Virus record (IMG/VR): IMGVR_UViG_3300044624_001881
Location: 293-64,292 of that record
Strand: one strand, 5' to 3'
DNA length: 64,000 bases
Origin: a virus
Taxonomy: Duplodnaviria > Caudoviricetes
Part shown: in pieces, positions 3,801 through 49,597 of the stretch
Numbering within the stretch: position 1 is the first letter of the stretch
Layout: each line of letters begins with the position of its first letter
The notes under the pieces: generated by a model
What the model was told of the DNA's origin: nothing
Database searches by the model: none
The model's input: the letters and a program-made list of their open reading frames with translations, nothing else
Program-made: the position numbers and the translations under genes

Positions 3801-6226
3801 AGTACGACGGTGTTGGTGCTCTATCGCCAAACCACGACTTTGCTCACGACACGACTACGAACCCAGTTACTCTTGACATAGACTTAGCGACACCATTTAG
3901 AGATTTCGTCGAAAATCTGCAGCAGTTTGTTCCTATGACAGGAACATCGACTGAGATTGTTGGTGAATGGGCTGCGCGTCAGCGTAGATGGACTGCAGGA
4001 TTAATTGAGCAAACAACAACTGATACATTAGTAATTAATGAGACAACTAGCTCTCAACTAGTTGGTGATTTTGTTTCAAACATTGAATTCAGCCCATATA
4101 TGAGATCGAGAGATATAAAAATCTTTATGTCTGGTTTAAGACCAGATACTCGCCACTATTTCTTCTTTGACGCTGTTGATGTTAATGTTCATGTAACACC
4201 AGGTACTCCTAGCAGCACTTTAAGAGATATACAAAAGTTTGGTGTAGCCGGCAGCGCGGTGACAACAGATGAAAACGGTGTGCTTAGAGCAGTGTTTACT
4301 CTTCCAAGAGAAACTTTCTTTGTCGGTGAAAGAGTGTTGACTGTTTCTGACGTAGATCAGTACAGCAGTATTTCATCGGGTGGAACATCTGGTGGTTCTC
4401 TAAAATATCACGCGTATAATATTTCTATAGAAAAATCATCATTAACTGCAACTACAAGAATACCAGACACTGATATCGATACAGTAGTAACTACACGAAA
4501 TCTACCAAGACGTCGTCGTGGTTTTGACCCACTAGCTCAAACATTCTTCATTAAAGAAGGTATGGGTCAAGGATCTAATAGTGTATTTGCTGGAAAAGTA
4601 GATCTTTACTTCAAGAGAAAAAGCGATATCAACGGTGTAACAATTATGCTTAGAGAAGTAGATAACGGTTATCCTGCTCCGGAAATTCTTTCTTTCTCGA
4701 AGATTCACCTCACTCCTGCACAAGTAAATACTTCTGATGATGCTACTGCGGTTACCGAAGTTTTCTTTGATGCACCAGTTAGACTTGACACAGAAAAAGA
4801 ATACTGTGTAGTAATTCAGCCAGACGCGAACGATCCTAATTATCTAGTTTACACTTCTAAAGTTGGTGGAGTAGACTTAACAGTAGGTGCAGAAACAGAA
4901 GGACAGCCAGTTGTACAAGACTGGGGTGACGGTGTTCTCTTTACTTCTACAAATAACAGAGCATGGCAGTCATACCAAGATGAAGACTTAAAGTTTACAA
5001 TTTACAGACATGACTTTAACGCTTCAACTGGATCAGTTACACTTACAAATTCCGATCACGAATTTATCACGCTTTCTAATTGGACCGGAAGATTTAATTT
5101 AGGTGAATTTGTATATCAAACAACCGGGTCAGCCTCAACAATAAGCATGGTATTAGGTTCTAGCGTAATTACGGGATCTGGTGTAGACTTTGCAAGTATA
5201 TATTCTGCCGGAGATTATATTCTTGTTGCTAACTCTGCAGCTACAAGACGTGAATTACTCAGAATTGCAAGCATTGATAGTTCTACTACAATGACAGTAA
5301 CAAAACCAATTTCGTTCGTTATAACAAACGGAACAGGCACACCTGCTGTGGTTGGAGAGATAACTTATTACAACATAGTTGAACCAAATAATGTACATCT
5401 CAAAGATAGTTCTGCTACTGCATCTAAAAAATTCACAGTAGGTTCTACTATCAGAGGATTTACTTCTGGAACCACGGGCGTCATTGGAAGCATTGATGAT
5501 ATTAACTTAAGTTATGTTCAACCAATTATCATGAAAACGAACGATTCCATTACGACCACGACTTTAGACGGAACATTTGTAGACCCATCAAACGTTATTA
5601 ATAGCTATAACACACCTCTTCAATTTGGTGATAATAATTTCTTCACTAATAAGGGTGTTATTCTTTACAGTAAATCAAATGACCCAACAAGACTTAAGCC
5701 TTTCGACATAAATGTTAGAATGGCGAATAGATCAAATAGCACTTCAACTCCTATCGTAGATTTAGAAACTGCTACGCTACTAGCTTATCAATTTAAAGCT
5801 ACAAATAGCGCGGCAACAACTTCTAAGTATATCTCGAAGACTATTGAACTTGCGGCAGATCTTGACGCAGAAGATATGGAAGTAATTCTAACAGGTCATC
5901 GTCCAAACGGAACGGACATTAAAGTGTACATTAAGCCACAAAATGCTTATGACAGCGCTAATTTTGAAACCAATGGTTGGATCGAATTAGAATTGTTTAG
6001 TGGTGTTGGTGTATTCTGCTCTACAACAAACCCTGATGACTACAGAGAATATAGATATCGCGTAGCTGATGCTAACAAAGATGTTAACGGGATTTTAACT
6101 TATACTAATACAACAACCGGAGTATTCTCGGGTTATAGAAAGTTTGCTATTCGAATTGACCTATTAGCTTCAAGTATCAATATCGTTCCAACTGTTAAAG
6201 ATTATAGAGGAATTGCACTAACATGA
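878..6226 (+). CDS. Large baseplate/virion structural protein, VrlC/DUF4815-like (1782 aa)
   Basis: N-terminus 'DLNIAPYFDDFD..KQFYKILFKPAYAVQARELTQLQTILQNQIEQFG', internal 'RTYEESGDY', 'RFKNGYIVDPF', 'DPLAQTFF' and 'EDLKF' motifs. AAGGA RBS upstream. Confidence 0.8.
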   Translation: MPINTDLNIAPYFDDFDLEKQFYKILFKPAYAVQARELTQLQTILQNQIEQFGDNVYKEGSIIKGCNFTNLNGLQYVKLVDKTGFDVESYISGPDTDIISGVETAIDVVYEVEGVNSLLKANIVSAARGFETRPPNLNTFFINYLTTNETSSYKQFIPGESLRINRYKYNGSTLYSTELNIESINVTLQSSPTGKSFGIQAAAGVVFQKGHFLFADAQTLVVSKYTDQPNNVSVGYETRESLITALQDNDLYDNANGSNNENAPGADRLKLVPVLVAKDTAAGNIDKDFFTLIRYQNGSAVLLRDVSQFNAIGEELAKRTYEESGDYILKDFVVHTDRRGADLKALVGTGTAYVKGYRVENRGELDFTIDPISNTEIEQNEAVSFDYGSYVDTVNISGTVDVTYGTADLLASDGSTKIGEAIVRNITPSRVYLFGVTMTANNVTFNDVNYISSTSGTIEVANNSVLKDTSKTTVIFDTGARYTKQVTDIAIPVRTSVSASVSNNSIVLNAGSVLGANEDFGVDNDDMVFVDATNTQIPILSYGTSLANSVLTINLASGSSPAGELYFNKRIQSATPYNKIAATPFIKVTYNTSKTKYSLGFPDVYAIEDIYDSVGTRYTDSFRLKTNQKDSYYDISYMEYIPGRPQPSNGTLTIKLNVFQINASTGKYFFTINSYPIDDVTDPLPAGKIRSNQVPVYVATNKKPYNLRDCFDFRPYADKDALANYTASAGSAPTITALADSTTPTFSGTDYLIPALNQYGITDIEHYLSRIDCITVDSYGNFTIVNGTESSIPAPPKVGPDQLVISEITVPGYPALSKQESIQQNKFEYAVKAKAQGVKNYTMRDIAKIEKKVNSLEYYISLNQLEQDVENLLITDENGLTRFKNGYIVDPFNDIKLGNLQDASFSAAVHFDKKILTPSLKTFPLDLKYKSSTSATIFPSTSAPEVASLSRNAYESLLSQDYATGFRNCVSNFWKYDGVGALSPNHDFAHDTTTNPVTLDIDLATPFRDFVENLQQFVPMTGTSTEIVGEWAARQRRWTAGLIEQTTTDTLVINETTSSQLVGDFVSNIEFSPYMRSRDIKIFMSGLRPDTRHYFFFDAVDVNVHVTPGTPSSTLRDIQKFGVAGSAVTTDENGVLRAVFTLPRETFFVGERVLTVSDVDQYSSISSGGTSGGSLKYHAYNISIEKSSLTATTRIPDTDIDTVVTTRNLPRRRRGFDPLAQTFFIKEGMGQGSNSVFAGKVDLYFKRKSDINGVTIMLREVDNGYPAPEILSFSKIHLTPAQVNTSDDATAVTEVFFDAPVRLDTEKEYCVVIQPDANDPNYLVYTSKVGGVDLTVGAETEGQPVVQDWGDGVLFTSTNNRAWQSYQDEDLKFTIYRHDFNASTGSVTLTNSDHEFITLSNWTGRFNLGEFVYQTTGSASTISMVLGSSVITGSGVDFASIYSAGDYILVANSAATRRELLRIASIDSSTTMTVTKPISFVITNGTGTPAVVGEITYYNIVEPNNVHLKDSSATASKKFTVGSTIRGFTSGTTGVIGSIDDINLSYVQPIIMKTNDSITTTTLDGTFVDPSNVINSYNTPLQFGDNNFFTNKGVILYSKSNDPTRLKPFDINVRMANRSNSTSTPIVDLETATLLAYQFKATNSAATTSKYISKTIELAADLDAEDMEVILTGHRPNGTDIKVYIKPQNAYDSANFETNGWIELELFSGVGVFCSTTNPDDYREYRYRVADANKDVNGILTYTNTTTGVFSGYRKFAIRIDLLASSINIVPTVKDYRGIALT

Positions 6227-34500: not shown

Positions 34501-37500
34501 CTTCTATGATAGCGCTAATACAACGTTCTATGGTGATTTCGCTTCGACATCACAATTAAACCAACTTATTCTAACTAACGCAGAACCACTTCGTTTTACT
34601 ACTACATCAACTGCTCTATTCGACTATGAAGGTGCTTCTCTAAACGTTCCATTCAATATGCAAAATACAGGTGGTACTGTATCAGACGGTTCAGCAGATG
34701 GTGTTCTTCAGTTAACAAGAATAAACCATAACAATGCTTCAACTACTGCCGGTGCTGGTCTTTACTTCCAACTTAAGGATAGCGCAGGGACTCTAAGAGA
34801 GTACGCCGGTATCTATGGTCGCAAGACTGTTGCTGGAATTGGCGGCGGTGAACTTGTATTCATGAACTATGCAAGAAATGAATTAGCTTACTTAAACAGC
34901 GGGTTCTTCAGACATACGACAGATGTAAGAGCTCCTCTATTCTCTGATAGTAATGATACTGCGTTCTTTATGGATCCAGCTAGCACTTCTGTAACTAACA
35001 TCGTGAGAGCGAATCAGCTTCAACTTGATGGTTCTACTTATCTTATCGACACTGCTTCTGGTGATTATGGTTCAATTCAAGTAAGTGGAAATAAAAATGG
35101 TTGGGCTGGCTATTCTATTAATGGCCAATGGAACTTCATGTCAAGTGGACCTGGTAATGCTGGTATCTACAACGACACTGATAACGAATGGGCTATTTTA
35201 GCAGCACAAAACTCAGATGTTCAGATTTACTTTGATGGTACATGGGAAGAAAGATCTCGTTCTGGATATATGGAAGCTCGTGGTGCTTATTACGCTCCTA
35301 TCTTCTATGATTCAGATAACACAACTTATAGAATTGATGGTAATGGTACTTCAAGACTTCTAACACTTAACGTTGATAACGTAATTGGCGGTAGTGTTAA
35401 CGGATATTCTACAACTCTTCTCTTTACCGATAATAGAACTATTTCTCCAAGCGAAGATCCAGCTGGTAGAATGAGATTTGGTTTCACCTCTTGGAACAAT
35501 AATAACACTTCGCCATATGCTGATTATCTACATCTAAGATCTTATACAGACGCCACAGGTGGATCTGATAATCTTGTGATGTTTAGAAAAGATGCTATCG
35601 GTATGCGCATCTGGCAGCAAACTTGGGGTAGTGCTACTGCGTATGCTACAGTTAGAAACGTAGCTATTTACAATGAAAACCCAGGAGCTTCAAACGATCT
35701 TTATGCTTCTATCTTCTACGATTCAAATGACACTGCATTCAGAGTTGATCCAAACAGTGTTTCTACTATTAGACAGATGCGTGTTGCTGCTCCGGTTCAA
35801 GCAGCTGATTATCTAAATGCTGCTATCGAAGTTAGAGAATTCAACTACGGTGGAGCGCAGACTGACGTTTACGCTACTGCTCCTAGAATAGCTTTCCATT
35901 GGAGTGGTAGAGTTGCAAGTCAAATTGCGATGGCGTCTGATGGTGAAATTCGTATTCTAAATAACCCAGGTACTGCTACAGAAGCATTTAGAGCTTCGAA
36001 CATTACAGCAGAAAGCGCTCTTTATAGCCAAATATTCTATGATAGCAATAATACTGCAAGATTTGTAGATCCGGCATCTACGTCCCAAATGAACCAAATT
36101 GTTATCAATGGTCAATCAACAATGGCGACACAGCCAGCATTGGTTGCTAGCAACTTTGGCCACGGCATTTATGGTCTGTACGATCCAACCAGATACCAAC
36201 ACGTATGGAGTATGGGTACTGCTTATAACCTTCCAGCAGACGGTCTAAGCACAGGCGCAACAGCAGGAAATCTATACGGTTTAGCTTGGGCTTTTAACCC
36301 GAACCATTCAGTTGCCGGAACAAACGTTCAAGCAAAAGCAGGCCTGAACCATCAGCTTCTTCTTATTCAAAATGGTACTACTACTTTTGCTGCCGGTTCT
36401 GGAATGTGGACTTCTGGTATTGCAACCAGCACAAACAGTTTCCGTGCTCCTATCTTCTATGATACCGACGACACTGCTTTTTACTTCAACGGCGCTACAT
36501 TAAACGACACACGTTTCGAAGGTGTTAATGCCAGAACAAAAGCAATGATGGGTCTTTCTGGGCAAACAAGATCTAGCGCAGAATTATACTCAGCAAGACC
36601 TAGAAACACGGCCGATCAAAACTACTGGACGGGCGCAATGGGTTGGTCCACTGTTGATATGAACACCGTCGCAGACTGGGGTTGTGGTTTCATTGATTCT
36701 TCTGGTAACCCAGGTAACCAACCAGCCGGCACTTCACACTGGGTGGGTGTTCAAGCTTTACATTTTACTGACGGATCTACTCGTTACGGTTGGCAGATGG
36801 TTGGCGGACCAATTGGTAACCTTAGATTTAGAAATACTTGGCCAAGTTTCCAAGCCTGGAGAACGATTCCAGTTCTTGATATTAATAACAATAACGGCGG
36901 GGCTATGTACGCTGGTATTTACTACGACTCTGACGATACCGCGTTTTATTGTGATCCAACTGGATTTACTAACCTAAACACTGGTGTACGTGCAACTGAC
37001 TTCTATGCACGTGATTGGTTCCGTAATGATAATGCTGGTGAAGGTCATTATAACCAAGCAACAGGTGTTCATTCTTATTCTAGAAACGCGAATGAATGGA
37101 GACTAGCAGGTAACAATAGCGCTAACGCTATGAACCTTCGTGGTTTAGCTAACTATGATGCAGTGAGCCGCTTCTGGATTCATGGTGCTACAGACGGATA
37201 CCAAGGTTTCTTAAACGATGCAGGCCAGTGGGTTCTTCGCATCACTCACGCCGACGGATTTTCTCCTGGTATTCGTTTCCAAGAAGAAGCTAACGAAACT
37301 TGGACCGGCAACCCAGGTTCTGATGTTGGTAAGATTGAATACCATGCTAACCGTTTCTACATCGCATCAGGTGCAAACTCTGATCGTATCGTTCAGTTTA
37401 GAAGAGATGGTACTGACGTATCATTCATTGGTAACGACGGTGTGTTTAACGGTACTGCAACATCTGCTCGCTACGCTGACCTTGCAGAACGTTATGAAGC

Positions 37501-37852
37501 AGACGCGATCTATGAAGCAGGTGTTGTTCTTGGTATCGGTGGTGACAAAGAAGTTACTCTATATCAACCAGGTATGCCACTCGCTGGAGCTGTCTCTGTT
37601 AAGCCAGGTTATCGCATGAACGATAAAGATTATGGAAACGATAATTCTATCGAAGCTAAAATGAACCCATTCGTTGCTCTTAAAGGTCGTATTCCAGTTA
37701 AGATTAATGGTTCGGCTAAGAAAGGACAGTGGATTGTTGCAGATAAAGATGGTAAGGGTCGTGCTGTAGATTACGGAAGTGATGTAAATAAGCACGAAAT
37801 TATCGGTGTTGCTATCGGCAATGGTGAAGGCGAAGTAGAAGTAAAGATCTAA
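28514..37852 (+). CDS. Very long modular tail fibre / receptor-binding protein (3112 aa)
   Basis: GTG start after GGGGAGAG. 'DADLLDG' motif, many 'RAP.FYDS.NT.(F/Y)..DPAS.S' and 'HNGDTDT' shaft repeats, and C-terminal 'ARYADLAERYEAD..YEAG.V..IGG..EV...VALKGRIPVK' autocleaving-chaperone-like domain. Confidence 0.8.
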   Translation: MANDKKFIVKNGLLTQQTVVIGSATDNGVNKLQVTGSSIFTQSTSATPTISITNTGGTSNSIIAQFTGDSDSLRILNIGTGDYAIVNSQQNNGIRFYDDTAGVEILYNGSVDVAFNSTGIDFKRQPTYNGSVFWNANNDGSGSGLDADLLDGIDSLRFLRSDEDDTFNGNLTITGNLTVSGNTTTVNTETILLADNIITLNSNYTGSTPSENAGIEVERGTLTNSSLVWDETNDWWKLISVGTDLGRIITTADEGSGNGFDADTVDGLQAAQFLRSDANDTATGDIIFQGTITVGNNTAAGATIIMDGEAGNRYIFSNNNEIGFLNSAFAYAAYSDGSNNWRVLNDTYAKRFIDSDNNTYLLDPASTSVLNIIDLEGQIRHNGDTDTYLNFNAADSFEVRTGGSQRLTVTNTAVTAINQMRSPIYYDNDDITYYGDFAGNSRLNDITLVGEIIADGDTNTYLDFNAEDSFQVVTGGTARLTVSNTAVTASVNMVAPQFVDSSDNAYYGDFASTSVMNNISLEGNLQHNGDTDTYITFPALNQIGFYTASTERFLITDTYAQSSNDLRAPRFVDSANFNKFADPAGTSEFNSANFYSGAANNSVNIGIGATERFNIDITDGQGFIRYIQDETDTTDHSVNFQIISTSTGLNRFNFNKNIDVGSNSVTGAFGVFSSGVYAPVFYDNDNELFYADFNNTDVSIRVAGEIIAGDGSLTTPTFSFVSDPNTGMYRFAADTIGFSAGGNDEFRIYTTYAQAVGQMRAPIYYDSDNTAYYGDFASSSVMNTIGIDSDLFHNGDTDTKLSFNTDSITLTTANVVRLTANTTALTSSLNTYAPRFYTDDYLVHVGDENTYVGFDANDTFGVWTNGANRLSITTTAITGSVNFVGPRFVDSDNNAYYAEPASSSVFNTLGIDSDLFHNGDTDTKLAFATDSIALNTAGATRLTANNTGVYTTNLYSSGVVDAVTAVYAPIYYDKDNNSYYADFANTGTSIVAAGKIAVGKTSASAMVDVNIATAMGANPYAAGNQYIKLGDASVVDFSIAGDNLRNIWGIIESSAQFVFADSAATILLSMDATAGDVIVGDQTAQYATSDGVPTFVGALDANKLHVNGSVQLNGINNAISIYAADAGNTAISSATFLAVNELGFSGGGGFYMNDTTNIRVKNNKTLTSTGDFQAARFVDVSDTNYFVDPASTSVMNRIGIDDYIQHNGDTDNYFGFAANDTFRVFTGNTQRLNVDNDSADFAVDVYAPRYFDSANSSYYVDPASTSIMSRIDIDDYIRHRGDENNYFGFEANDTFRVFTSGTQRFNVDDNSADFAVDVYAPRYFDSNNNTFVGDFAGTSVFARVTMPQNTVGVSFSGNSNVPDYYIGQTTGDTDAWKIYGESPSGTDTASLIIAVEGDRDANEQIRFRFKNSTTFATTDALVAYHDYVQATTSFRAPIFEDSNNTAFYIDPASISVTNTMRANQFQIDGSTYIIDSPAGEYGSIRVEGAVDGTWAGYAIRDDWVFMADGATNAGIYNDTDNEWAIQFIRNGGTDLLFDGIKQAETENGHFLATNQMRAPIYYAPSSTSYWLDLDVASGTDALRIPSQINRLNFTADSGSTNNFLVAQDQNHFVWTPVTNWGIFWATNSTAAYRHTPFVDNMITFVGAGTVRAAIDLDNGNAYFQGEVTASNFRISGGNEDLGILKTYGSGLADTKMFDGTEYWEKRVIQAMQGVEDSATTVTAEYVKNNNGPFASTYALRTDQYRTFDSDYIPVEPGEQIYGEIAARYISGSGGLVYMGIRRYDKDKLPITSNDGIEYFVVSANNLTDTNWVTFSGHTTIPTTHTPFNGSDGGGCKYVRVIVLMNYPNGTGPALREYGPPVLKRTNHLSNAQFQNVTVNGNASVTGTVTGTQFIDANNNAYYVDPASTSLMNEIHVDEYIRHNGDTDSFLRFIGEDDVQLVAGGRQMLRMTEGTDPDRLRFVTDTNWTDSDGDWNMSRDITVGRTGTAVTDFRAPIFYDSANTTFYGDFASTSQLNQLILTNAEPLRFTTTSTALFDYEGASLNVPFNMQNTGGTVSDGSADGVLQLTRINHNNASTTAGAGLYFQLKDSAGTLREYAGIYGRKTVAGIGGGELVFMNYARNELAYLNSGFFRHTTDVRAPLFSDSNDTAFFMDPASTSVTNIVRANQLQLDGSTYLIDTASGDYGSIQVSGNKNGWAGYSINGQWNFMSSGPGNAGIYNDTDNEWAILAAQNSDVQIYFDGTWEERSRSGYMEARGAYYAPIFYDSDNTTYRIDGNGTSRLLTLNVDNVIGGSVNGYSTTLLFTDNRTISPSEDPAGRMRFGFTSWNNNNTSPYADYLHLRSYTDATGGSDNLVMFRKDAIGMRIWQQTWGSATAYATVRNVAIYNENPGASNDLYASIFYDSNDTAFRVDPNSVSTIRQMRVAAPVQAADYLNAAIEVREFNYGGAQTDVYATAPRIAFHWSGRVASQIAMASDGEIRILNNPGTATEAFRASNITAESALYSQIFYDSNNTARFVDPASTSQMNQIVINGQSTMATQPALVASNFGHGIYGLYDPTRYQHVWSMGTAYNLPADGLSTGATAGNLYGLAWAFNPNHSVAGTNVQAKAGLNHQLLLIQNGTTTFAAGSGMWTSGIATSTNSFRAPIFYDTDDTAFYFNGATLNDTRFEGVNARTKAMMGLSGQTRSSAELYSARPRNTADQNYWTGAMGWSTVDMNTVADWGCGFIDSSGNPGNQPAGTSHWVGVQALHFTDGSTRYGWQMVGGPIGNLRFRNTWPSFQAWRTIPVLDINNNNGGAMYAGIYYDSDDTAFYCDPTGFTNLNTGVRATDFYARDWFRNDNAGEGHYNQATGVHSYSRNANEWRLAGNNSANAMNLRGLANYDAVSRFWIHGATDGYQGFLNDAGQWVLRITHADGFSPGIRFQEEANETWTGNPGSDVGKIEYHANRFYIASGANSDRIVQFRRDGTDVSFIGNDGVFNGTATSARYADLAERYEADAIYEAGVVLGIGGDKEVTLYQPGMPLAGAVSVKPGYRMNDKDYGNDNSIEAKMNPFVALKGRIPVKINGSAKKGQWIVADKDGKGRAVDYGSDVNKHEIIGVAIGNGEGEVEVKI
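32223..32481 (+). repeat. Exact 40-bp direct repeat within a 219-bp (73-codon) tandem module duplication
   Basis: actctgcagattttgctgtagatgtatatgctcctcgtta occurs at 32223-32262 and at 32442-32481. Confidence 0.85.
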
Positions 37853-38425
37853 TCAGTCGTCATTATATAGAAACAAATCTACTGGAAGAGCTATACGAAG
37901 AGTCGAGTCGTATCTTCTGACATGATGATAAAGGAAACCTGGGAAAATTATTACATCACCAGTTTGCGGCATGTGTACTGTTGGTTTAAACTGTGGTTGA
38001 AACTCTAACGTGTACCCACGGTTCGCGTTAGTTCGAGGATCACTGAAAACAATTTCTCCTCCTCTATCATCATGCTCTGCCATAATATAGAAAACTGCTA
38101 TAAATGGTGAGCCTGCATGGTTATGTGTATCCATACTATAGCCACTGCTATTTCCGGTAAGCCATGATTTGAACTTGAAATCATAGTCGTATAGACTTAT
38201 CCCGTATATTTTATCAAGATATTCAGCAAACTTTTCTTCAGCTAATTCTTTTAGTCGAGGAATCTTATGTATGATAACTGAAGCTTCGTCATCGCCAGGT
38301 GAAGTAACAACCTCGTTCGACATAACTCCAGTTAATATAGTTTCACAATCTTCTTTACTAATCTTTGACAAATATACTGTAGTCGGGTAAAGATTAGTGA
38401 ATCCTAAATCCAATCTCTTCATCAT
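37853..38425 (-). CDS. Putative 2OG-Fe(II) oxygenase (phage-type double-stranded beta-helix, HxH...H)
   Basis: 'SW.......MDTHNH....AVFY......GGEIVF.DPR...GDVIIFPGFLYHHV......RIAL' pattern. Confidence 0.8.
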   Translation of the reverse strand: MMKRLDLGFTNLYPTTVYLSKISKEDCETILTGVMSNEVVTSPGDDEASVIIHKIPRLKELAEEKFAEYLDKIYGISLYDYDFKFKSWLTGNSSGYSMDTHNHAGSPFIAVFYIMAEHDDRGGEIVFSDPRTNANRGYTLEFQPQFKPTVHMPQTGDVIIFPGFLYHHVRRYDSTLRIALPVDLFLYNDD

Positions 38426-38792
38426 AATATTCCTTTACGTCTGGTACCATGCCAGTCATTTTTAATGGCAGTTCAATGTCTCTTAAAATTTTGTTGTATG
38501 TTTCTTGATCTTCTTCATATGTTTTAAAATATGGATCATTGCCAGCAAGCAACATTGGATCTTTAAGAAGCTCTATTAAATCTTCATTATAATCTTCGGA
38601 TATCCAACTTGCATAGCATACTGCTACGAAATAACTCTTCGCCGGATATATCCATTGATCTACTTTTTCATGAAAATGACGGATGATATCGTTGTAATCG
38701 TCGCTCATGACAACATCGACTTCGTTTAGATCGTCTCGATATTCATGATTAAGTCTATGATATATCTCTTGTTTAATTTTCCACTCTTGCAT
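38394..38792 (-). CDS. Hypothetical protein in the radical SAM operon (132 aa)
   Basis: Overlaps both neighbours in the operon. Acidic and helical, with 'WIYPAKSYFVAVCYASW'. Confidence 0.65.
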   Translation of the reverse strand: MQEWKIKQEIYHRLNHEYRDDLNEVDVVMSDDYNDIIRHFHEKVDQWIYPAKSYFVAVCYASWISEDYNEDLIELLKDPMLLAGNDPYFKTYEEDQETYNKILRDIELPLKMTGMVPDVKEYYDEEIGFRIH

Positions 38793-39684
38793 TTCTATAC
38801 CAATCTAAAAGTCCTTTATAACCGTTGCAACTATTTTCAAGATTATCAACATAACGATAATGCTCGGTTAAACAATTACCATAATACTTGCACTGCTTAC
38901 AAATGTCGCTAATAGTTTCTTTTTCTTTTTGAGTCCATTGGATATATTCATCCCATGATTCTAGCTCTAAGAAATATTCTTTATCATATTTATCGAACTC
39001 AAGTACACCAAATTTTCCATTCGGTGTTATGTAAATATGATTATCAGAGAAAGCGTTATACACACCTTCGTATGAATCTCGAATTCTATCTTCATTTATA
39101 AAATGAAACTTTTTCGGAGTAAAAGCTGTTAACCATTTTATAACAAAGTTTTCATAATCTTTATGTGTAACATTATATGAATTCGCTTGGTTTATAGAAT
39201 ATGGTTTAATTTCAACTGAGTCTATAGAAGAACACGTGTTTAACATATTAATCATCTCTTCTACATCCATCTCAAGAACTTGAGGTGAAGCAAGTATCAA
39301 TACTGCGATAGGAACTGGAGACATGAGCATATTTTTATAAACGAGCTCAGACTTTTCTCGTGCAGCAAAGTCATATGACACTGAGAGATACATGTCTTCT
39401 TCGTAAAATCCTTCATGTATCATAGAGTAATTCGTTATCACGTTGATCTCTCCATCGTAATGTTTACGAATTACATCTTTCATTGAATAGAAGTAATCTT
39501 TCTTGAGCGCACCAATCTCACCACCATAAAGATCGATGTGTTCTATAGAAGGAACTTGGCTTAACAGTTCATCGAGTCTGTCTAATTCTATCTTCTTTGT
39601 ATCACGAAGTTGTGATTCGGTCAGATAACAAAAGCTACAATTAAAGTTGCAGAAGTAAGAGGGGTTGATACTTACTGTGTACAT
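38773..39684 (-). CDS. Radical SAM protein with partial C-terminal Cys-rich (SPASM-like) extension
   Basis: CNFNCSFC (CX3CX2C), 'LYGGE', and C-terminal 'CKQCKYYGNC...SC'. Confidence 0.85.
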   Translation of the reverse strand: MYTVSINPSYFCNFNCSFCYLTESQLRDTKKIELDRLDELLSQVPSIEHIDLYGGEIGALKKDYFYSMKDVIRKHYDGEINVITNYSMIHEGFYEEDMYLSVSYDFAAREKSELVYKNMLMSPVPIAVLILASPQVLEMDVEEMINMLNTCSSIDSVEIKPYSINQANSYNVTHKDYENFVIKWLTAFTPKKFHFINEDRIRDSYEGVYNAFSDNHIYITPNGKFGVLEFDKYDKEYFLELESWDEYIQWTQKEKETISDICKQCKYYGNCLTEHYRYVDNLENSCNGYKGLLDWYRNARVEN

Positions 39685-40709
39685 GATTCATCCACATATG
39701 GAGTTGGTTCTAAATTGATACCATTAGCTCTAATAATCTCTGGTGCAAGTTGTTTCATATGTCGGCAGTGATCTTCAACCATACCAAAATTCTTTAAATC
39801 TTTTACTGTCTTTCTACAACCGTTGCATATCTCAAACATTGGACATGTAAAGCAAGATTTTTTTAACGACAACAAATTTAAATCATCAGTTAATGGTGTA
39901 GAGAACCCGCCAGCCATCTCATATTCAAAGTCTATAGCTTTATCACGATCATCACCAAATGACCCACACGAATAGTAATCACCTTCAGGATTTATATTAC
40001 GTATGGTAGAATCGCATGTACGACTTTGCGGGCATATAGTATTTTTACCACTTAAACGTTTTAACATTTGTTGAGTGTTAAATTCCCAAGGAGCTAAACC
40101 AGCTTTCCAGATCTCAACATATTTTTCATAGATCTTCGATAGTCTATACGGCTTATCTTGATCTCCGCTTGCCATAGCGTAGTTAACTTTACATATCACA
40201 TTCATTCTTTTTGCTAATTCAACTGTTTGAATAACAGTATCTTCGTTTTCTTCAGTGATAACCGCAAGAAACGTAGGACGATATCCGATGTGTTCAAGCA
40301 TAGCATTAGAAGCATTCCAAAAATCTTCTTCACTAAATACAGAATAATCGCCTTTAAGTCTACCATTCCCGTACTGAAAAGAAGTTGCAATACCTACACG
40401 TGGATGCAAGAACAATGGTTTCCACTTTGCTATATTCTTATAGAAAGGCCAAAGGTTTGTGGTGAGTGATACTGTAGCAGGATAATCGTTATCTTCGAGA
40501 TGCTTAATGAGTCTCCAGTAATAAGCTGGACTCATCATTAATGGGTCACCACCATTTACGATGATAGTGTTTGTGTTTGGGTATCTTTTGAGAAAACGAA
40601 AGACGCGCTCAAGATCAAGTTGGGATGTGTGTTCTTCTGATATCTTTGTTGATGAGCAGAAAGTACACTTGAAGTTACACACTTCAGTGGGCTTAATAAT
40701 TAAATCCAT
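39672..40709 (-). CDS. Radical SAM/SPASM-domain protein (peptide/protein maturase-like)
   Basis: 'IIKPTEVCNFKCTFC', 'NGGDPL', and SPASM-type 'CPQSRTC..INPEGDYYSC' and 'CFTCPMFEICNGC..HC'. Confidence 0.9.
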   Translation of the reverse strand: MDLIIKPTEVCNFKCTFCSSTKISEEHTSQLDLERVFRFLKRYPNTNTIIVNGGDPLMMSPAYYWRLIKHLEDNDYPATVSLTTNLWPFYKNIAKWKPLFLHPRVGIATSFQYGNGRLKGDYSVFSEEDFWNASNAMLEHIGYRPTFLAVITEENEDTVIQTVELAKRMNVICKVNYAMASGDQDKPYRLSKIYEKYVEIWKAGLAPWEFNTQQMLKRLSGKNTICPQSRTCDSTIRNINPEGDYYSCGSFGDDRDKAIDFEYEMAGGFSTPLTDDLNLLSLKKSCFTCPMFEICNGCRKTVKDLKNFGMVEDHCRHMKQLAPEIIRANGINLEPTPYVDESCTQ

Positions 40710-41015
40710 TTATATATCAGCGTTAGGTTTATCTTTGCCATACTTGTAATTACATTCTCTAAAATATTGTGTCTTATCAATAGAATCAACACCTTCAATT
40801 TCACATAACCTACGATTAATAATACGAATCTCTTCTTTGAGAATCTGACCGTATGGTTCCATAACTTGAATCATATCCATATACATTTTATATTTCACGG
40901 GATCATTCTGAAAATCGTGCATTTTAGTGATCCAAACGTTGTATATTTCTGCGCACAGATCTCTTTCATCACCAAGATCTTTTTTCTTTTTTAATAGAGA
41001 TTCAATCTCGGTCAT
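40710..41015 (-). CDS. Hypothetical helical protein (101 aa)
   Basis: Sits inside the operon, overlapping the upstream gene and abutting the downstream gene. Confidence 0.6.
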   Translation of the reverse strand: MTEIESLLKKKKDLGDERDLCAEIYNVWITKMHDFQNDPVKYKMYMDMIQVMEPYGQILKEEIRIINRRLCEIEGVDSIDKTQYFRECNYKYGKDKPNADI

Positions 41016-44746: not shown

Positions 44747-45916
44747 TTACCTCAATGTATACTTAAAAAGTATTTCCTTATTTTCGTAATTTTGTAAAAG
44801 ATGATCGACAAAATATGTATTAACAGATCCTAAATCGATTGCATAAAATGCGCCAGCTGCATGATTGTGATGATGAAGTTCGTACTCTATAATCTTTTTC
44901 ATGTTTTCTACACTGATGATATCACTATCAGCAAAGAATGGAATAAAATCAAACTTATCAATTTCAGATCTTAAAACTGTATACCACTGCTCATCCGTCC
45001 AAACAGTACCAGTAACAATACTGTATTGTCTTAATACAGGTATGTCTGCAGCAGTAAAGTTGCGAAGATTAATAGTGCTAGTAGCAGAAGGAGCGTACAT
45101 AGAGGTTTTAGTAGTTCCCCAAACGTTTACTCTACACATTACTTCTATCATAGGTGCTGGGTCATTCGCCATATCATAGAAGTTGTCAAAAGTATACGGC
45201 CCGTTTTGAACTTGAAGAAGCTGCTGAAAAACCGGCTTTTGAAAATGAACAAGAAGAATTTCTTTGTGTTCGTAAAGAAACTTTTCTAAATCTTTTTTTA
45301 CTAAAGGTGACATCGATATTGCTAAGGCCTGTGCGTATCTTTCGTCGTACAAATACGAGGCTAATAAAAACTCAACACTTAGCATTGGTCTAATTGAATC
45401 GATAAACGAGTCAAAATTATCGCCAGTTGGAAGAGGATCTTGCGAATAACAGGTTAGGAATTTAGCTTCTTCTAACTGCCATGTTTCAGATATGCCATTA
45501 GCAAATCTTTGAGTGGCTGACATTCGGCTATTAACAAAGTTCTTTTCTTTAAACATGTGAGATTTAAAAAATTTCCAAGCGTCTGTATCAGAAGCATTCG
45601 GTAAAATTAATTTAAGCCATTGGCTGGCTAGATGATAATAAGAATCGTAATCGCAATATATGTAAAAAGGTCGCGAGTTTAATTCACTGCATTCTTTTGC
45701 TGCTATTAACAAATCTGTGAACGAAGCGTATGGAGCACCTTCTCCGAATAGTTCACCTACTGATTTAACAGAAGCTAAGATTTTTCCATAAAATACAACA
45801 GCTAAATCTTCATACGCATCAATACCACCGTTTTCTTGTGAGACTATAATACGATTTTGACTCATGCTTATCTTTTCATCAAAATCAAGATATATTTTAT
45901 TGAACAGGTGGAACAT
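44747..45916 (-). CDS. Hypothetical protein in the radical SAM operon (389 aa)
   Basis: Long ORF overlapping the upstream gene by 20 nt. No motif recognised. Confidence 0.7.
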   Translation of the reverse strand: MFHLFNKIYLDFDEKISMSQNRIIVSQENGGIDAYEDLAVVFYGKILASVKSVGELFGEGAPYASFTDLLIAAKECSELNSRPFYIYCDYDSYYHLASQWLKLILPNASDTDAWKFFKSHMFKEKNFVNSRMSATQRFANGISETWQLEEAKFLTCYSQDPLPTGDNFDSFIDSIRPMLSVEFLLASYLYDERYAQALAISMSPLVKKDLEKFLYEHKEILLVHFQKPVFQQLLQVQNGPYTFDNFYDMANDPAPMIEVMCRVNVWGTTKTSMYAPSATSTINLRNFTAADIPVLRQYSIVTGTVWTDEQWYTVLRSEIDKFDFIPFFADSDIISVENMKKIIEYELHHHNHAAGAFYAIDLGSVNTYFVDHLLQNYENKEILFKYTLR

Positions 45917-46631
45917 TTTCTAACTCCTGAATTTCTTTTTGAATTTCTAATAGTGATGTTGCAACACTAGCGTCATATTGTTCCTTAGTCACGATTCCAT
46001 TTGCTATACCCCAAGTTAAAAGGAACATGGGATTATTTTCATTAGCCCAGTACGAATAAAGATTCTGTCCTTTAAACATGTATTCGTTAAAGTACTTAGA
46101 ATAATATATTATATTTTCTTCCTTTATGTTTTCATAAAAGCTATAAAATTCTTCGTGCTTTAACAAGCTAACAAAATTGATACCTTCTGTAGAGTCGGTG
46201 TCATTAGTTGGTAGGCTTATAATCTGTTCTTTAATAGAATCATCATTGATGCAGTACATATTAAAAAGTATTAGAGAGTCTAATTTCTCTATCCACGAAT
46301 CTAACAAGTGACCATACTTTTCTACAACAGTGGGAGTAAAATTTTCTTTAAGACCTTTACGTTGTAATAGCATGTCGATTACTCTATATTCTAATGATGG
46401 AATATTAACAATATGAGTAAACTTTAGATAAGCTTCAACCATATCAAATAACGAATCATTTGTATCATATAAAATGTCGCAAGGAAGATCAAGATTACCT
46501 AGATATATTAATAGCTTTTCACCCTTAATATCAGAAATACCGTAGTCTATAATATACTTAGTGTCTTTGTCTTGAAAATAAAGTTTCAGGTCTTCAATAC
46601 CAATTGGTGCTTTTGTTGTAATAACATTCAT
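45897..46631 (-). CDS. Hypothetical protein in the radical SAM operon (244 aa)
   Basis: AGGA RBS. Directly follows the CH-repeat protein. No motif recognised. Confidence 0.7.
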   Translation of the reverse strand: MNVITTKAPIGIEDLKLYFQDKDTKYIIDYGISDIKGEKLLIYLGNLDLPCDILYDTNDSLFDMVEAYLKFTHIVNIPSLEYRVIDMLLQRKGLKENFTPTVVEKYGHLLDSWIEKLDSLILFNMYCINDDSIKEQIISLPTNDTDSTEGINFVSLLKHEEFYSFYENIKEENIIYYSKYFNEYMFKGQNLYSYWANENNPMFLLTWGIANGIVTKEQYDASVATSLLEIQKEIQELENVPPVQ

Positions 46632-46643
46632 AATATAGATTCC

Positions 46644-47285
46644 TTATCTGCGGCCGCGAGACACATGGCAGTTGTTATGGCAAGAAGCATGACAAACGTT
46701 CACTTGCTGTGTATGAACGGTTGCTCGAGCAGTGTTATACGCGGTTCTTAAATTTGTGAAGAATGCTTCTAGATTTGCGGTGTTAATTAGAGAAACACCG
46801 TCATTTGCTATACCAGTAGATACGGTTCCAGCAAGGCCTTGTAAATAAGATGTATTTAAATTTGAAACGTTAGTACTGTCACGAATAATGCCGGGTCCTT
46901 GTCCAGTAATAGGGCCCAAGTCTGTTCTTACGTTGTTTCCTGTGCCATTACCAGTAGGACGAGGAGTAATAAACCCGGTTCCAGTAATAAACAGAATAGC
47001 TCTCATATTACGAATACGTGTAAAAGTTGCTGTTTCAGTTCTTAAAACGTTTATAATTGTAGAGGCGGTAATTAGACCAGTTGGCCCGCCTATGCTAGTT
47101 CCGTTAATACCTATGCCTTTACCGCTAGCGTTTCCACCAAAGATGTTTGGAAAATATCCTGAGTAAACATCGAATGGAAAAGCGCCGCTGTGCCACACAA
47201 TTCCAGCATTTGCACTAGCTACGACGTAATCGGCAAATCTATCTACAATGTTTTGTGCGTTAATGTTATTTGTAAGTACTGCCAT
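46644..47285 (-). CDS. Putative modification substrate: virion-like Gly/Asn/Thr-rich protein with C-terminal (CHxx)3-RGRR tail
   Basis: 213 aa. Its only three Cys lie in the terminal 'CHASCHNNCHVSRGRR'. Located directly after a radical SAM/SPASM gene. Confidence 0.7.
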   Translation of the reverse strand: MAVLTNNINAQNIVDRFADYVVASANAGIVWHSGAFPFDVYSGYFPNIFGGNASGKGIGINGTSIGGPTGLITASTIINVLRTETATFTRIRNMRAILFITGTGFITPRPTGNGTGNNVRTDLGPITGQGPGIIRDSTNVSNLNTSYLQGLAGTVSTGIANDGVSLINTANLEAFFTNLRTAYNTARATVHTQQVNVCHASCHNNCHVSRGRR

Positions 47286-48306
47286 TTATCTCTTCATCCA
47301 ATCTTAGCATAAGTAATTTAGGTGCCGGACAAACATCGCCTTCCCATTCTAATTGATGACAATCCCCACCGCAATATTTATACATTGGACATTGATAACA
47401 ACGTGGATCGCGGCTGAGCTCGCTAGCGATTATTTGGCACCTTTTCGGTGAATTTATTATTTCTTTAGCAGAATTATTTATATGTCCATAGACCTCTTCT
47501 GGTGCTGCATTAGGACATCCCGAGATGCCGCCATCAGCATTAATGGTAAACAATTTCTGTTCACAGTCTCTACAGAAAGTACCACCCTTTGTAAATCCAG
47601 TTTCAAACTTTGAGTACACGTTCTCAAGAAATCCATTATGAAACCATTCACGAGCACCATACTCTTCTGTTTGTTCATGTAACTTTACGAACCAATGTTG
47701 AAGTTCTATATTCGTTGGAAAAACAAACAGGTTTTTCTTAGCATATCCGTTTGATGTAACACGTTCTAGATCTAATTCTTGAACACCAAGACTCTTTGCA
47801 TACTTTAAAATTTCTATTGGTTCCATCGATACGGCGTCTTTTGTAAGAGATACAAAAAGCTTTATCGTGTAGCCTCTATCAATTAAAAATCTTACGTTAT
47901 CTTCAAATAGTTGTCTTTGTTTCTCATTAGCAAAACGAATCTTAGGATCCCAAGAAGTACCAATTCTTTTCTGTAATACATTATCCATAAAATCTAGTTT
48001 ATCTTCAGTGAGCTTGTAAACTAGATTTGTTGTTGCGCCATATGTTGAATCATTCCAAACGTCTTTTGTAAGATCATAGAATTTTCTCATGTCTTCTATC
48101 TTAGCGAGAAAAGGTTCTCCACCATGATATTCAAAATGACATGTTGCTTCAGGTCTTATTTGCTTTACTTCGTTTACCCATCGAGCAACATTTTCCGGAT
48201 CGAAATAGATTTTCTTTCCGTTTTTACCAGAAGTAAAACAATGAGAGCAATCTAAGTTACAGGTCTCAGTTGTTTTGATATAAAATACTAGATTGTTTTG
48301 AATCAT
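47266..48306 (-). CDS. Radical SAM/SPASM-domain protein (peptide/protein maturase-like)
   Basis: 'YIKTTETCNLDCSHC', 'YHGGEPFL', 'CRDC..TINADGGISGC' and 'CYQCPMYKYCGGDC..C'. Confidence 0.9.
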   Translation of the reverse strand: MIQNNLVFYIKTTETCNLDCSHCFTSGKNGKKIYFDPENVARWVNEVKQIRPEATCHFEYHGGEPFLAKIEDMRKFYDLTKDVWNDSTYGATTNLVYKLTEDKLDFMDNVLQKRIGTSWDPKIRFANEKQRQLFEDNVRFLIDRGYTIKLFVSLTKDAVSMEPIEILKYAKSLGVQELDLERVTSNGYAKKNLFVFPTNIELQHWFVKLHEQTEEYGAREWFHNGFLENVYSKFETGFTKGGTFCRDCEQKLFTINADGGISGCPNAAPEEVYGHINNSAKEIINSPKRCQIIASELSRDPRCYQCPMYKYCGGDCHQLEWEGDVCPAPKLLMLRLDEEINGSTYK

Positions 48307-48713
48307 TATTGACCTACAGAAAGAATAACAGATCTATATAGATTTGTAGCTTCATGAGGAGTACCCTGTGGAATAAAAATATGTTCCCCTTCAGAAATAA
48401 TCATTTGCTCTCCGTCAACATTCATAGTCTTAGTACCTTCAATACAATAAATAGTAACATCACAGGTATCCTCGTGAACGCCAAATGATTTAGCTCCTTC
48501 TGGAGAAATAAAACAGTGAACTGTGTTCGGATAAAACTCATTAGTTACCCGTTCTATGTCTTCTATTTTTACGGTTTTAGTATTTTCTGCTATATAAAAA
48601 ATAGCTTTGTTCTTATCTATAGGATGATCTAAACCATCATCATCTATAACAAAACACTTAAAATCTATTGTAGAATATTCGATATATTCTAATATTTTAT
48701 TCAAAGTTATCAT
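48306..48713 (-). CDS. JmjC/cupin-fold Fe(II)/2OG-type hydroxylase-like protein (135 aa)
   Basis: 'SFGVHEDTCDV.IY..EGTK' (HxD plus Lys) and 'GE.IFIPQGTPHEA' (distal His), the pattern of YcfD/NO66-like JmjC cupins. Confidence 0.7.
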   Translation of the reverse strand: MITLNKILEYIEYSTIDFKCFVIDDDGLDHPIDKNKAIFYIAENTKTVKIEDIERVTNEFYPNTVHCFISPEGAKSFGVHEDTCDVTIYCIEGTKTMNVDGEQMIISEGEHIFIPQGTPHEATNLYRSVILSVGQ

Positions 48714-48747
48714 ATAAAACTCACAGGTTTAGTCTTCATCATGTTAG

Positions 48748-48755
48748 TATTTATT
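48748..48755 (-). promoter_or_regulatory. Candidate late promoter variant (AATAAATA) for the minus-strand radical SAM operon
   Basis: Plus-strand tatttatt lies 34 nt upstream of the cupin start. The same AATAAATA variant precedes + strand late genes at 53816 and 56543. Confidence 0.5.
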
Positions 48756-48845: not shown

Positions 48846-48879
48846 GATCTATTATCTAACTCATAACATGGAGATAAAC

Positions 48880-49248
48880 ATGGCTTTTACATATAATTGG
48901 TCAGTTACAAGTCTTAAAGTAAAAGACGAAGTAAATGCTGACGGAGAAACACTCCAAAATGCTGTTGTCCAAACATATTGGAAAGTAGTTGGTACAGATA
49001 GCAATGGTAATACTGGTGAGTTCTCGGGTGCTACACCATTCAGCGCAGCTAACGTTCCAGCTGGTTCGTTTGTAGCTTTTGCTGATCTTACAGAAGAAAC
49101 AGTTCTCAACTGGATTAAAAACGTTGTTAATGGTGATCCTTCTTACAAGGCTCACATCGACAGCCAACTTCAAAGACGTATTGATGCTGAAGTATCTGTT
49201 GAAAAGTCTGGCGCAGCTCTTCCTTGGGCCGTTCCTGGCTCGGAATAA
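48880..49248 (+). CDS. Small phage protein, tail-fibre-associated type
   Basis: GGAG RBS before the ATG at 48880 (ORF track starts at 48868). Pattern 'TYNWSV.SL...NAVVQTYW...G...F..FADLTEETVLNWI....LPW'. Confidence 0.7.
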   Translation: MAFTYNWSVTSLKVKDEVNADGETLQNAVVQTYWKVVGTDSNGNTGEFSGATPFSAANVPAGSFVAFADLTEETVLNWIKNVVNGDPSYKAHIDSQLQRRIDAEVSVEKSGAALPWAVPGSE

Positions 49249-49264: not shown

Positions 49265-49597
49265 GTGAATTACACTTGGCAAATTTTAAGTCTTGGTCTT
49301 AAAGATCAAATCAACCAAGATGGTGAACTTCTTCAAGATGCAATTGTTTTTGTTCACTGGAAAAAAATTGCTGAAGATGCGAATGGTAGCAGAGCAAGTT
49401 ATCTTGGAAAGACTGAACTTTCTGCAGCTAACGTGTCTGCCGAATCCTTTATCAATCTAAATGTAGTAGCTAAAGAAGATGTAATAGATTGGATAGAAAA
49501 CAGTCTTACAGCTTCGCAAAGAAACAGCATTGAAAATATTCTATTGAAGAAAATTGAAAAAAGTAAGCTAAAAAAATACACCCCATCTTGGGGATAA
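49265..49597 (+). CDS. Paralogue of the preceding small protein (110 aa)
   Basis: 'YTWQILSLGLKDQINQDGELLQDAIVFVHW..LSAANVSAESFI..DVIDWI..PSW' aligns with 48880-49248. AAGGA RBS, GTG start. Confidence 0.7.
   Translation: MNYTWQILSLGLKDQINQDGELLQDAIVFVHWKKIAEDANGSRASYLGKTELSAANVSAESFINLNVVAKEDVIDWIENSLTASQRNSIENILLKKIEKSKLKKYTPSWG

Follow-up and report, generated by a model that had tools for sequence, protein, structure and literature searches.

A near-invariant Cys-His-x-Ser/Asn tail on a phage protein, a candidate substrate of clustered radical SAM enzymes

Why should a phage protein end in three tandem Cys-His repeats, and why is its gene surrounded by genes for radical S-adenosylmethionine (SAM) enzymes? 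This question is raised by a gene on the minus strand of a viral DNA of 64,000 nucleotides (nt), i.e., positions 293 to 64,292 of the IMG/VR record IMGVR_UViG_3300044624_001881 (Duplodnaviria, Caudoviricetes). The whole stretch is called the window below, the product of the gene is called the CH-tail protein, and radical SAM enzymes are abbreviated rSAM. An earlier note, made from the letters alone, had proposed that the protein is a substrate with a modified tail. The near-invariant tail and its nearly constant clustering with four rSAM enzymes indeed make the CH-tail protein a probable substrate. That the cassette rSAM enzymes crosslink or otherwise modify its tail, comparable to the maturation of HxsA or of triceptides, seems to us slightly better than an even bet (about 55%), and no rival explanation accounts for the full pattern as well.

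The tail and its conservation

The C-terminus of the CH-tail protein reads VCHASCHNNCHVSRGRR, or, in a longer reading, ...QQVNVCHASCHNNCHVSRGRR. Cys occurs at residues 198, 202 and 206 only, a His follows each of them (199, 203 and 207), and the chain ends with RGRR; the codons of all three Cys are within 46647-46694. The translation confirmed what had been noticed in the letters, namely three Cys residues four apart in the last 16 residues, each followed by His and capped by RGRR. The earlier description of the protein as rich in Gly, Asn, Thr and Ile and poor in acidic residues agreed with the residue counts (Thr 12.2%, Gly 12.2%, Asn 11.3%, Ile 8.9%, with Ala also abundant). Only 8 of the 213 residues are Asp or Glu and 14 are basic. 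With a net charge of +6 the CH-tail protein is the sole net-basic protein encoded in its gene cluster.

The protein has no match in Pfam and no NCBIfam family at E<=0.01, and its sole PHROG match is phrog_35144, a family of unknown function, which covers residues 186-213 and thus the last 28 residues. A word-indexed search retrieved 261 relatives at E<=0.01; the named ones are all called "hypothetical", and a Pfam domain is present in none of them. When every protein was compared with the family profile, 608 cluster representatives (50% identity) were retrieved at E<=1e-3; 265 remained at <=1e-10 and 90 at <=1e-30. The family occurs in phage and viral records and in a few contigs of metagenome-assembled genomes (MAGs). 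All eight family matches in the bacterial genome collection (L084-L091) are on such MAG contigs, from Marinovum, Rickettsiales, Bdellovibrionaceae and Rhodobacteraceae bins, and these are probably phage contigs that were binned with bacteria.

The exact ending CHxxCHxxCHxxRxRR is present in 137 of the 150 cluster representatives that were listed (of the 608). Of the 13 exceptions, three have an extra Gly before RxRR, two carry a CHSNHxNTCH variant, one has two repeats followed by GGGG, one reads CHYSCFTSSCHFSRGRR, and six have broken or different ends. Among 123 sequences taken from the word-indexed search and three named phages, 122 likewise have the exact tail. At position 4 of the repeat, 129, 107 and 120 of the 137 sequences have Ser (repeats 1, 2 and 3, respectively) and most of the others Asn; the true repeat unit is therefore C-H-x-S/N. 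The protein of the window has the units H199-x-S201, H203-x-N205 and H207-x-S209. At position 3 of the last repeat, G occurs in 63, S in 41, N in 14, T in 4, R in 3 and D in 3 sequences, these six commonest residues making up 128 of the 137.

All six Cys and His positions were retained in 80 of 80 viral loci. In these loci TGT and TGC as well as CAT and CAC are common, and Ser is encoded by TCN and by AGY codons. This synonymous variation indicates that the conservation is at the protein level, by purifying selection on the amino acids, and that the tail is not a nucleic acid element. In loci L001-L083, 2914 open reading frames (ORFs) have 60 aa or more; 83 of them contain the (CH..)x3 motif, each one a CH-tail orthologue. 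The tail motif is confirmed to be real and far beyond chance.

The remainder of the protein is far less constrained. Within the close group the body is 45-55% identical; an N-terminal helix is invariant there (Q11, N12, D15, R16, A18, D19), and the middle is variable and contains insertions. For the proteins of the phages RSL2 and Atu_ph07, homology to the family profile could be recognized only in the last 48 and 73 residues, respectively, i.e., the final helix, the final strand and the tail. The check that had been suggested earlier, whether the tail is invariant while the body varies, therefore came out as predicted.

Linkage to a cassette of radical SAM genes

The CH-tail gene is part of a gap-free block on the minus strand (37853-48713, no intergenic gap larger than about 12 nt), which we call the cassette. 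Its gene order is cupin, rSAM1, CH-tail, p244, p389, a 2-oxoglutarate (2OG) oxygenase, rSAM2, a B12-binding rSAM (B12-rSAM), another 2OG oxygenase, p101, rSAM3, rSAM4, p132 and 2OG-FeII_Oxy_5 (Table 1). The ATG of the CH-tail gene is located inside the final 20 nt of the upstream rSAM1 gene.

The linkage of these genes was quantified with ORFs that were called in the 80 viral loci, which had been found with the family alignment, and matched to the proteins of the window. In 71 of 75 loci the CH-tail gene is immediately preceded by rSAM1, frequently with an overlap; p244 is directly downstream in 72 of 75, and the cupin gene is present in 72 of the 74 loci with room for it. For the other genes, the counts refer to the 63 loci that extend 9 kb or more downstream. 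Both rSAM2 and rSAM4 are present in all 63 of them, p389 in 62, rSAM3 in 61 and p132 in 60. The B12-rSAM gene was found in 31 and p101 in 13 of these loci, and the 2OG oxygenases in 26 (160-aa type), 38 (175-aa type) and 51 (2OG-FeII_Oxy_5). It follows from these counts that the core consists of cupin, rSAM1, CH-tail, p244, p389, rSAM2, rSAM3, rSAM4 and p132, and the B12-rSAM, the 2OG oxygenases and p101 would represent optional tailoring enzymes.

The linkage was also approached from the side of the enzyme. rSAM1 has 364 relatives in viral contigs, 80 of which were kept for this reverse test; the rSAM1-seeded set shares many contigs with the CH-tail-seeded set, and the two sets are not independent. 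Among the 78 rSAM1-seeded loci with room downstream, the exact tail is encoded within 1.5 kb in 69, within 1.8 kb in two more, and at a distance of 2.2 kb, behind three inserted ORFs, in one.

Isolated phages gave the same picture. A tblastn search with the CH-tail protein retrieved 12 records (two phages being duplicated) and one chance match at E = 10. The carriers are Pseudomonas phage pPa_SNUABM_DT01, Agrobacterium phage Atu_ph07, the Ralstonia phages RSL2, FLC4-4C, FLC4-5C, FLC4-11C and RsoM3USA, and the Burkholderia phages FLC6, FLC8 and SURPRISE13. With rSAM1 as query, 15 records with 38-48% identity were found, which comprise the carriers of the CH-tail gene plus RSF1 and Sinorhizobium phage Phosso. 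The gene downstream of rSAM1 was read in RSF1 and Phosso and has the same tail, and direct reading also covered the tails of DT01, RSL2 and Atu_ph07. All 15 isolate records with rSAM1, a RefSeq duplicate of RSF1 counted among them, therefore stem from tail-carrying phages, and in the annotated isolates the order is cupin, rSAM, tail protein in every case. The carriers belong to at least four distant lineages of large myoviruses: T4-like lake phages, Chiangmaivirus, the Atu_ph07/Phosso group and DT01. The tie to radical SAM genes that the earlier note had assumed is thus borne out by the linkage counts, by the isolates and by the rSAM1-seeded loci alike.

Judged from their sequences, the cassette enzymes look active. 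In rSAM1 the CxxxCxxC motif (C16/C20/C23) and eight further C-terminal Cys are invariant in all 39 aligned sequences, and its SPASM score is above the cut-off. The other three core enzymes, rSAM2 to rSAM4, likewise have CxxxCxxC motifs and Cys-rich C-termini. The triad H80-x-D82...H120 of the cupin and its K95 are invariant in 28 of 28 sequences. PADLOC gave weak viperin-type matches to the generic rSAM cores only. A separate small precursor gene within the cassette was considered and rejected, since there is no gap for one and the motif is present in no other ORF.

The cassette could also serve something else, e.g., DNA hypermodification or the synthesis of a small-molecule cofactor, with the CH-tail protein as an accessory subunit. 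Phage radical SAM enzymes participate in thymidine hypermodification (PMC8989533), and the authors of the DT01 genome guessed at DNA repair or metabolism (PMC8541153). However, all four core rSAM enzymes have the SPASM/twitch-like Cys-rich C-termini that are typical of maturases of peptides and proteins, Pfam, PHROG and NCBIfam scans revealed no nucleotide-metabolism genes in the cassette, and the cassette lies among fibre genes. We regard an unrelated product as quite improbable.

Table 1. Coordinates of the CH-tail gene, the cassette and further features of the window
Feature	Coordinates	Strand	Remarks
CH-tail protein	46644..47285	-	213 aa, ATG start; variable globular body and conserved C-terminal helix, strand and tail
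Tail V197-R213	46647..46697	-	V-(C-H-x-S/N)x3-R-x-R-R; stop codon at 46644-46646
Cupin, JmjC-like, 135 aa	48306..48713	-	Cupin_2 39.4 bits, JmjC_2 30.3 bits
rSAM1, radical SAM/SPASM, 346 aa	47266..48306	-	PF04055 30.0 bits (cut-off 29.5), phrog_1802, TIGR04085 SPASM 31.3 (cut-off 27)
p244 (phrog_20767), acidic	45897..46631	-	Directly downstream of CH-tail gene; no assigned function
p389, acidic	44747..45916	-	Core member; no assigned function
2OG-Fe(II) oxygenase-like, 160 aa	44262..44744	-	Variable member; PF13640 21 bits, below cut-off
rSAM2, 336 aa	43255..44265	-	Core member; phrog_1802; CxxxCxxC and Cys-rich C-terminus
B12-binding radical SAM (methyltransferase-like), 592 aa	41526..43304	-	Variable member; PF02310, PF04055, NF033712 107.9 bits
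2OG-Fe(II) oxygenase-like, 175 aa	41002..41529	-	Variable member; Pfam scan
p101	40710..41015	-	Variable member; no assigned function
rSAM3, 345 aa, SPASM-like	39672..40709	-	Core member; PF04055 44.2 bits
rSAM4, 303 aa	38773..39684	-	Core member; PF04055 30.5 bits
p132 (phrog_20737), acidic	38394..38792	-	Core member; no assigned function
2OG-FeII_Oxy_5 protein, 190 aa	37853..38425	-	PF13759 41.4 bits
C-terminal domain of 3112-aa fibre (~residues 2963-3112)	37400..37852	+	phrog_19602, tail fiber
Giant DUF4815/phrog_358 protein	878..6226	+	
Fibre protein, 405 aa	6407..7624	+	
Fibre protein, 1362 aa	17875..21963	+	
Hydrophobic ORF, 42 aa	48710..48838	-	4-nt overlap with cupin start
DUF7936 paralogue	48868..49248	+	Tandem pair with the following
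DUF7936 paralogue	49265..49597	+	

Protein body, proposed maturation and fibre genes

The AlphaFold2 model of the CH-tail protein (38-row alignment) is a compact alpha/beta domain with a mean predicted local distance difference test score (pLDDT) of 81.4 and a predicted template modelling score (pTM) of 0.75. The tail leaves the domain straight after the last beta-strand and the last ~14 residues are modelled with low confidence, consistent with an accessible, flexible end. The model fits the former idea of a folded leader carrying a tail, and the two helical segments seen in the letters are located in the predicted helices H74-90 and H169-187. A Foldseek search of the PDB yielded no match at E<=0.001 (best E 1.1), and a wide VIA-align search of 48,161 chains revealed no clear relative (best Z 4.7). 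The ESM Atlas contained no usable match for the CH-tail protein, and the top score for p244 was 0.75, below the hit level. The BFVD matches were all family members, apart from three larger proteins from a single uncultured myovirus. The latter (A0A8S5USJ7, A0A8S5USJ8, A0A8S5USV2) are neighbouring proteins of 504-660 aa with a body-like predicted fold (Foldseek E 1.8e-4 to 4.2e-3), which makes them possible larger relatives of the carrier domain. Because the body is modelled as a compact alpha/beta domain without a clear known-fold match, it does not look fibre-like, and the former characterization of the protein as virion-like and similar to the neighbouring fibre proteins was not supported.

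From the observed sequence, conservation, gene linkage and intact catalytic motifs we infer the modification itself, its chemistry and its role as follows. The globular body of ~195 residues would be a docking or scaffold domain, and the working part would be the exposed C-terminal tail (Cys-His-x-Ser/Asn)x3-Arg-x-Arg-Arg. The SPASM-type enzyme rSAM1 would abstract hydrogen from side chains of the tail and form crosslinks, and the other three SPASM/twitch-like enzymes probably crosslink likewise. The likeliest chemistry would be the formation of three-residue cyclophanes between His-C2 and the C-beta of Ser/Asn in each H-x-S/N unit, and/or of Cys thioethers. The H-x-S periodicity had already been seen as a likeness to known precursor families, and H-x-S/N does match the motifs of the rSAM-modified HxsA and of His triceptides (PMC13128918; PMC11499958). 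Hydroxylation or methylation could follow, catalysed by the JmjC-like cupin, the 2OG oxygenases and the optional B12-rSAM. The product would most likely stay attached to the protein as a rigid, Cys-rich and basic appendage, for which metal binding or a function together with the tail-fibre genes that usually accompany the cassette are candidate roles. The earlier ideas of an analogy with T4 gp37 and of a tail that mimics a metallophore for a TonB-dependent receptor gained no support from the analysis.

Two acidic core proteins might contribute to this process. p244 has a charge of -19, its model has a pLDDT of 88.4, and its gene overlaps the CH-tail gene by a few bases in many loci. Fold searches with p244 gave no clear match to a known fold and a profile search of PDB sequences nothing meaningful; it might assist the basic tail protein as a partner or chaperone. 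p389 is without a match in Pfam, NCBIfam and PHROG, and only two rows were obtained with PDB sequences (E 0.095 and 0.68). rSAM1 lacks an N-terminal recognition domain; presentation of the tail would fall to the folded body, or to p244 and p389. A predicted complex of rSAM1, three 4Fe-4S clusters, SAM and the CH-tail protein scored 0.28, compared to a mark of 0.32, in a prediction without controls, a value that favours neither side.

Several points weigh against a modification of the tail by the cassette enzymes. All support is genomic, and the modification itself is deduced from it. rSAM1 has no N-terminal extension resembling a recognition element (RRE) for RiPPs (peptides that are made on ribosomes and modified after translation), as its cluster motif begins at residue 16. 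It is also far under every curated NCBIfam equivalog cut-off, e.g., 42.8 bits for HxsB (cut-off 370), 29.1 for YhhB (445) and 33.3 for PapB (340). The cassette rSAM scores for HxsB, the anaerobic sulfatase-maturating enzyme (anSME), DynA, DarE, PapB and YhhB range from 29 to 46 bits versus cut-offs of 340-650, so that the chemistry cannot be assigned by homology and can only be inferred. Typical RiPP precursors diversify, and a large folded body with an invariant "core" does not resemble them. Furthermore, three Cys and three His could bind a metal or an Fe-S cluster without any modification.

Lastly, 6 of the 78 rSAM1-seeded loci have the order cupin, rSAM1, rSAM3, rSAM4 and no CH-tail gene beside rSAM1. 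Five of these records were searched (the sixth, of 6.9 kb, was outside that search), and three of them carry a gene with the same tail elsewhere in the record, one of these ~5.7 kb upstream of rSAM1; in the other two, fragments of 10.6 and 17.9 kb, a CH-tail gene was not found. The presence of distant CH-tail genes in permuted loci indicates that the link is to the whole cassette and that adjacency to rSAM1 is usual, not obligatory. The permuted cassettes (L151, L156, L157, L162, L169, L170) have the order ...rSAM2, B12-rSAM, cupin, rSAM1, rSAM3, rSAM4, a gene for a 248-aa protein, p132, and in records of sufficient length the CH-tail gene is several kb upstream.

The metal-binding capacity of Cys and His leads to a specific alternative, in which the unmodified Cys3His3 tail is a carrier of iron, Fe-S clusters or zinc that supplies or stabilizes the cassette rSAM enzymes. 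The window encodes five of them, each of which needs one to three [4Fe-4S] clusters, the cassettes contain four to seven Fe-S enzymes and the CH-tail gene is always with them, and a flexible end with three Cys and three His would suit a carrier. However, the conserved Ser/Asn at position 4 and the invariant R-x-R-R would be left unexplained, and therefore metal binding alone is hard-pressed to explain the tail. In addition, Pfam and NCBIfam matches to IscU, NifU, Nfu and A-type carriers are absent, and we know of no cluster scaffold in which Cys residues are arranged with i, i+4, i+8 spacing on one short segment. We consider such a carrier improbable.

If the substrate reading is extended, the invariance of the tail gains a meaning of its own: an invariant core on a varying carrier looks closer to a pathway for a cofactor or prosthetic group than to one for a diversifying natural product. 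In its boldest form, a phage factory of ~10 genes would make of the tail a new Cys/His prosthetic group, protein-bound and multiply crosslinked, that acts together with the giant fibres. Its members include four SPASM-type rSAM enzymes, the JmjC-like oxygenase and three proteins without an assigned function, two of which were modelled and have no clear known-fold match. The prosthetic group might be a virus-encoded, protein-derived cofactor or a metal-binding warhead used in adsorption or infection. Taken together, this scenario is speculative and rather unlikely.

A connection with fibres is suggested by the neighbourhood of the cassette. A fibre protein that ends like the last ~150 residues of the 3112-aa fibre of the window is encoded directly upstream of the cupin gene in 38 of 69 loci, and a giant DUF4815/phrog_358 protein similar to that of the window is present in 54 of 83. 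The usual layout is the DUF4815 giant, the fibre protein and then the cassette, all on the same strand; the window has kept both genes in a rearranged form. Large structural genes are also near the cassette in Atu_ph07, Phosso, DT01 and RSF1. The genomic link between cassette and fibre genes is thus a repeated one, which by itself is no evidence for the presence of the tail protein in the virion.

These neighbours would be expected if the CH-tail protein were a component of the virion or of fibre assembly, the tails of several chains binding metal jointly, as the His motifs of the T4 fibre do, and the rSAM enzymes acting elsewhere. Yet the body is modelled as a compact domain and not as a fibre, and the strict pairing of tail and cassette would be unexplained if the enzymes had another target. 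A metal site formed by an oligomer therefore seems unlikely to us, similar to the metal carrier discussed above. The fibre proteins themselves were rejected as carriers of the same motif, because eight large proteins of the window lack the dipeptide "CH" and are not enriched in H-x-S/N. The fibre proteins of 405 and 1362 aa end alike (...LIGLLIEAIK.L...), and both match long-tail-fibre PHROGs at their C-termini; this points to a common C-terminal module.

The virus itself is represented by a record of 64,292 bp with an estimated completeness of 29%, nearly all of which is contained in the window. Its terminase large subunit is nearest to those of the Sinorhizobium phages phiN3 and phiM12 (57-58% identity), followed by T4-like cyanophages, and the window also encodes a tail sheath and many fibre genes; it is therefore a piece of a large T4-like myovirus. 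The region 46500-48400, with rSAM1 and the CH-tail gene, is matched without a single base difference by contigs from four lake-water runs of four studies, and a megablast search of isolate phages with 43000-49000 yielded no match. Next to the cupin gene, a hydrophobic ORF of 42 aa is not conserved across the other loci, in which a fibre gene occupies that spot, and further outward the tandem DUF7936 paralogues are divergent from the cassette.

Comparison with known systems

The closest parallel is the HXS system. HxsA, reported in 2026 as the first HxS-repeat protein with this kind of maturation, is an antiphage effector with HxS repeats that is matured by the rSAM enzymes HxsB and HxsC together with HxsD, and its repeat SHRSS bears a covalent change of +8 Da (PMC13128918). 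Both systems contain a protein, and not a short peptide, with tandem basic His-x-Ser units beside more than one radical SAM/SPASM enzyme. In contrast to the bacterial HXS system, the cassette described here is phage-borne, each unit begins with an invariant Cys, and exactly three units are placed at the extreme C-terminus in front of RxRR. Neither HxsA nor HxsD could be recognized, since the CH-tail protein has no HxsA match and p132 and p101 have no match in NCBIfam. The scores of rSAM1 with TIGR03978 (42.8, cut-off 370) and of rSAM3 and rSAM4 with TIGR03977 (27.1 and 22.0, cut-off 267.9) are 10-fold under these thresholds. The cassette also differs by its four rSAM enzymes, the JmjC-like cupin, p244, p389 and p132, and a peptidoglycan-binding domain was not found.

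The parallel might extend to function, in that a matured basic tail would bind nucleic acid and block the DNA entry of competing phages or counter host defence. HxsA offers a precedent with its basic HxS repeats, its maturation by two rSAM enzymes and its DNA binding (PMC13128918), and the positive charge of the CH-tail protein stands out among the otherwise acidic or neutral products of the cassette. Against such an effector stand the lack of any match to HxsA, HxsD or a PADLOC model, the lack of a peptidoglycan-binding domain in Pfam and NCBIfam scans, and an N-terminus that is part of the folded body. Moreover, HXS is reported to be nearly confined to Pseudomonadota, mostly Gammaproteobacteria (PMC13128918). 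An HXS-like effector is thus very improbable, and we return to modification as such.

With regard to chemistry, triceptides are the nearest model. They are RiPPs with three-residue cyclophanes that are made by rSAM/SPASM enzymes (3-CyFEs, three-residue cyclophane-forming enzymes) such as HtkB, HaaB and YhhB, which join His-C2 to the C-beta of residue 3 on HTK, HAA and HNR (PMC11499958). The likeness consists of repeated aromatic-X-X units with His at the C-terminus of a ribosomal product and of an adjoining SPASM rSAM gene. Unlike the short leader-core peptides with variable cores, the CH-tail protein is a folded protein of 213 aa with an invariant core, and the crosslink is a proposal here. 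rSAM1 does not have an N-terminal recognition domain and scores below the cut-offs of the synthases (YhhB, as given above, FxsB 26.6/370, AmcB 24.9/425; ChlB, 9gm3, has E 3.5e-4 by profile).

Sactipeptides and ranthipeptides share regularly spaced C-terminal Cys residues (here C198, C202 and C206) and an adjacent SPASM enzyme with the CH-tail system, but their maturase equivalogs are unmatched (PapB, see above; TIGR04115 21.3/350). Protein-derived cofactors are also made by rSAM/SPASM enzymes, i.e., from QhpC by QhpD, from PqqA by PqqE and from MftA by MftC, and the product of QhpC stays on a protein subunit with Cys thioethers. These systems resemble the cassette in the invariant target residues near the C-terminus, the neighbouring SPASM maturase and the extra tailoring enzymes of the oxygenase type. 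They differ in that the rSAM matches are weak and generic (e.g., rSAM2 with the quinohemoprotein maturase 17.3, cut-off 453) and that a partner dehydrogenase or peptidase was not recognized in the cassette. A further enzyme to be compared is anSME. It is among the best PDB and NCBIfam matches of rSAM1 and has a similar size and architecture without an N-terminal extension, and the last repeat C-H-x-S-R has the spacing C-x-x-x-R. However, the score of rSAM1 is 42.8 bits versus a cut-off of 349, the CH-tail protein is not a sulfatase, and the target (C/S)-x-(P/A)-x-R does not fit, as Pro is not among the six commonest third residues.

Full-text searches of the literature turned up the cupin, rSAM and 2OG genes only in annotation lists, namely in jumbo-phage genome papers on FLC6, SURPRISE13, RP12/RP31 and DT01, and no account of the tail protein. 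Bacteria and archaea are known to mature peptides and proteins with radical SAM enzymes. The general kind of system is thus known, and what is plausibly new is a phage-borne, rSAM-matured repeat-motif protein with a Cys-His-x-Ser tail and a novel carrier fold. With 608 clusters at 50% identity and 364 relatives of rSAM1, the finding points to a large phage-borne counterpart of HxsA. If the tail is modified, it would represent a new class of virus-encoded post-translational chemistry, it would offer an easy heterologous target, i.e., one small protein with one defined C-terminal peptide, and it would provide a clue to the ~10 kb of Fe-S enzymes in phages with giant fibres. Compared to HXS, the target motif of this counterpart is much sharper and its enzyme set is richer.

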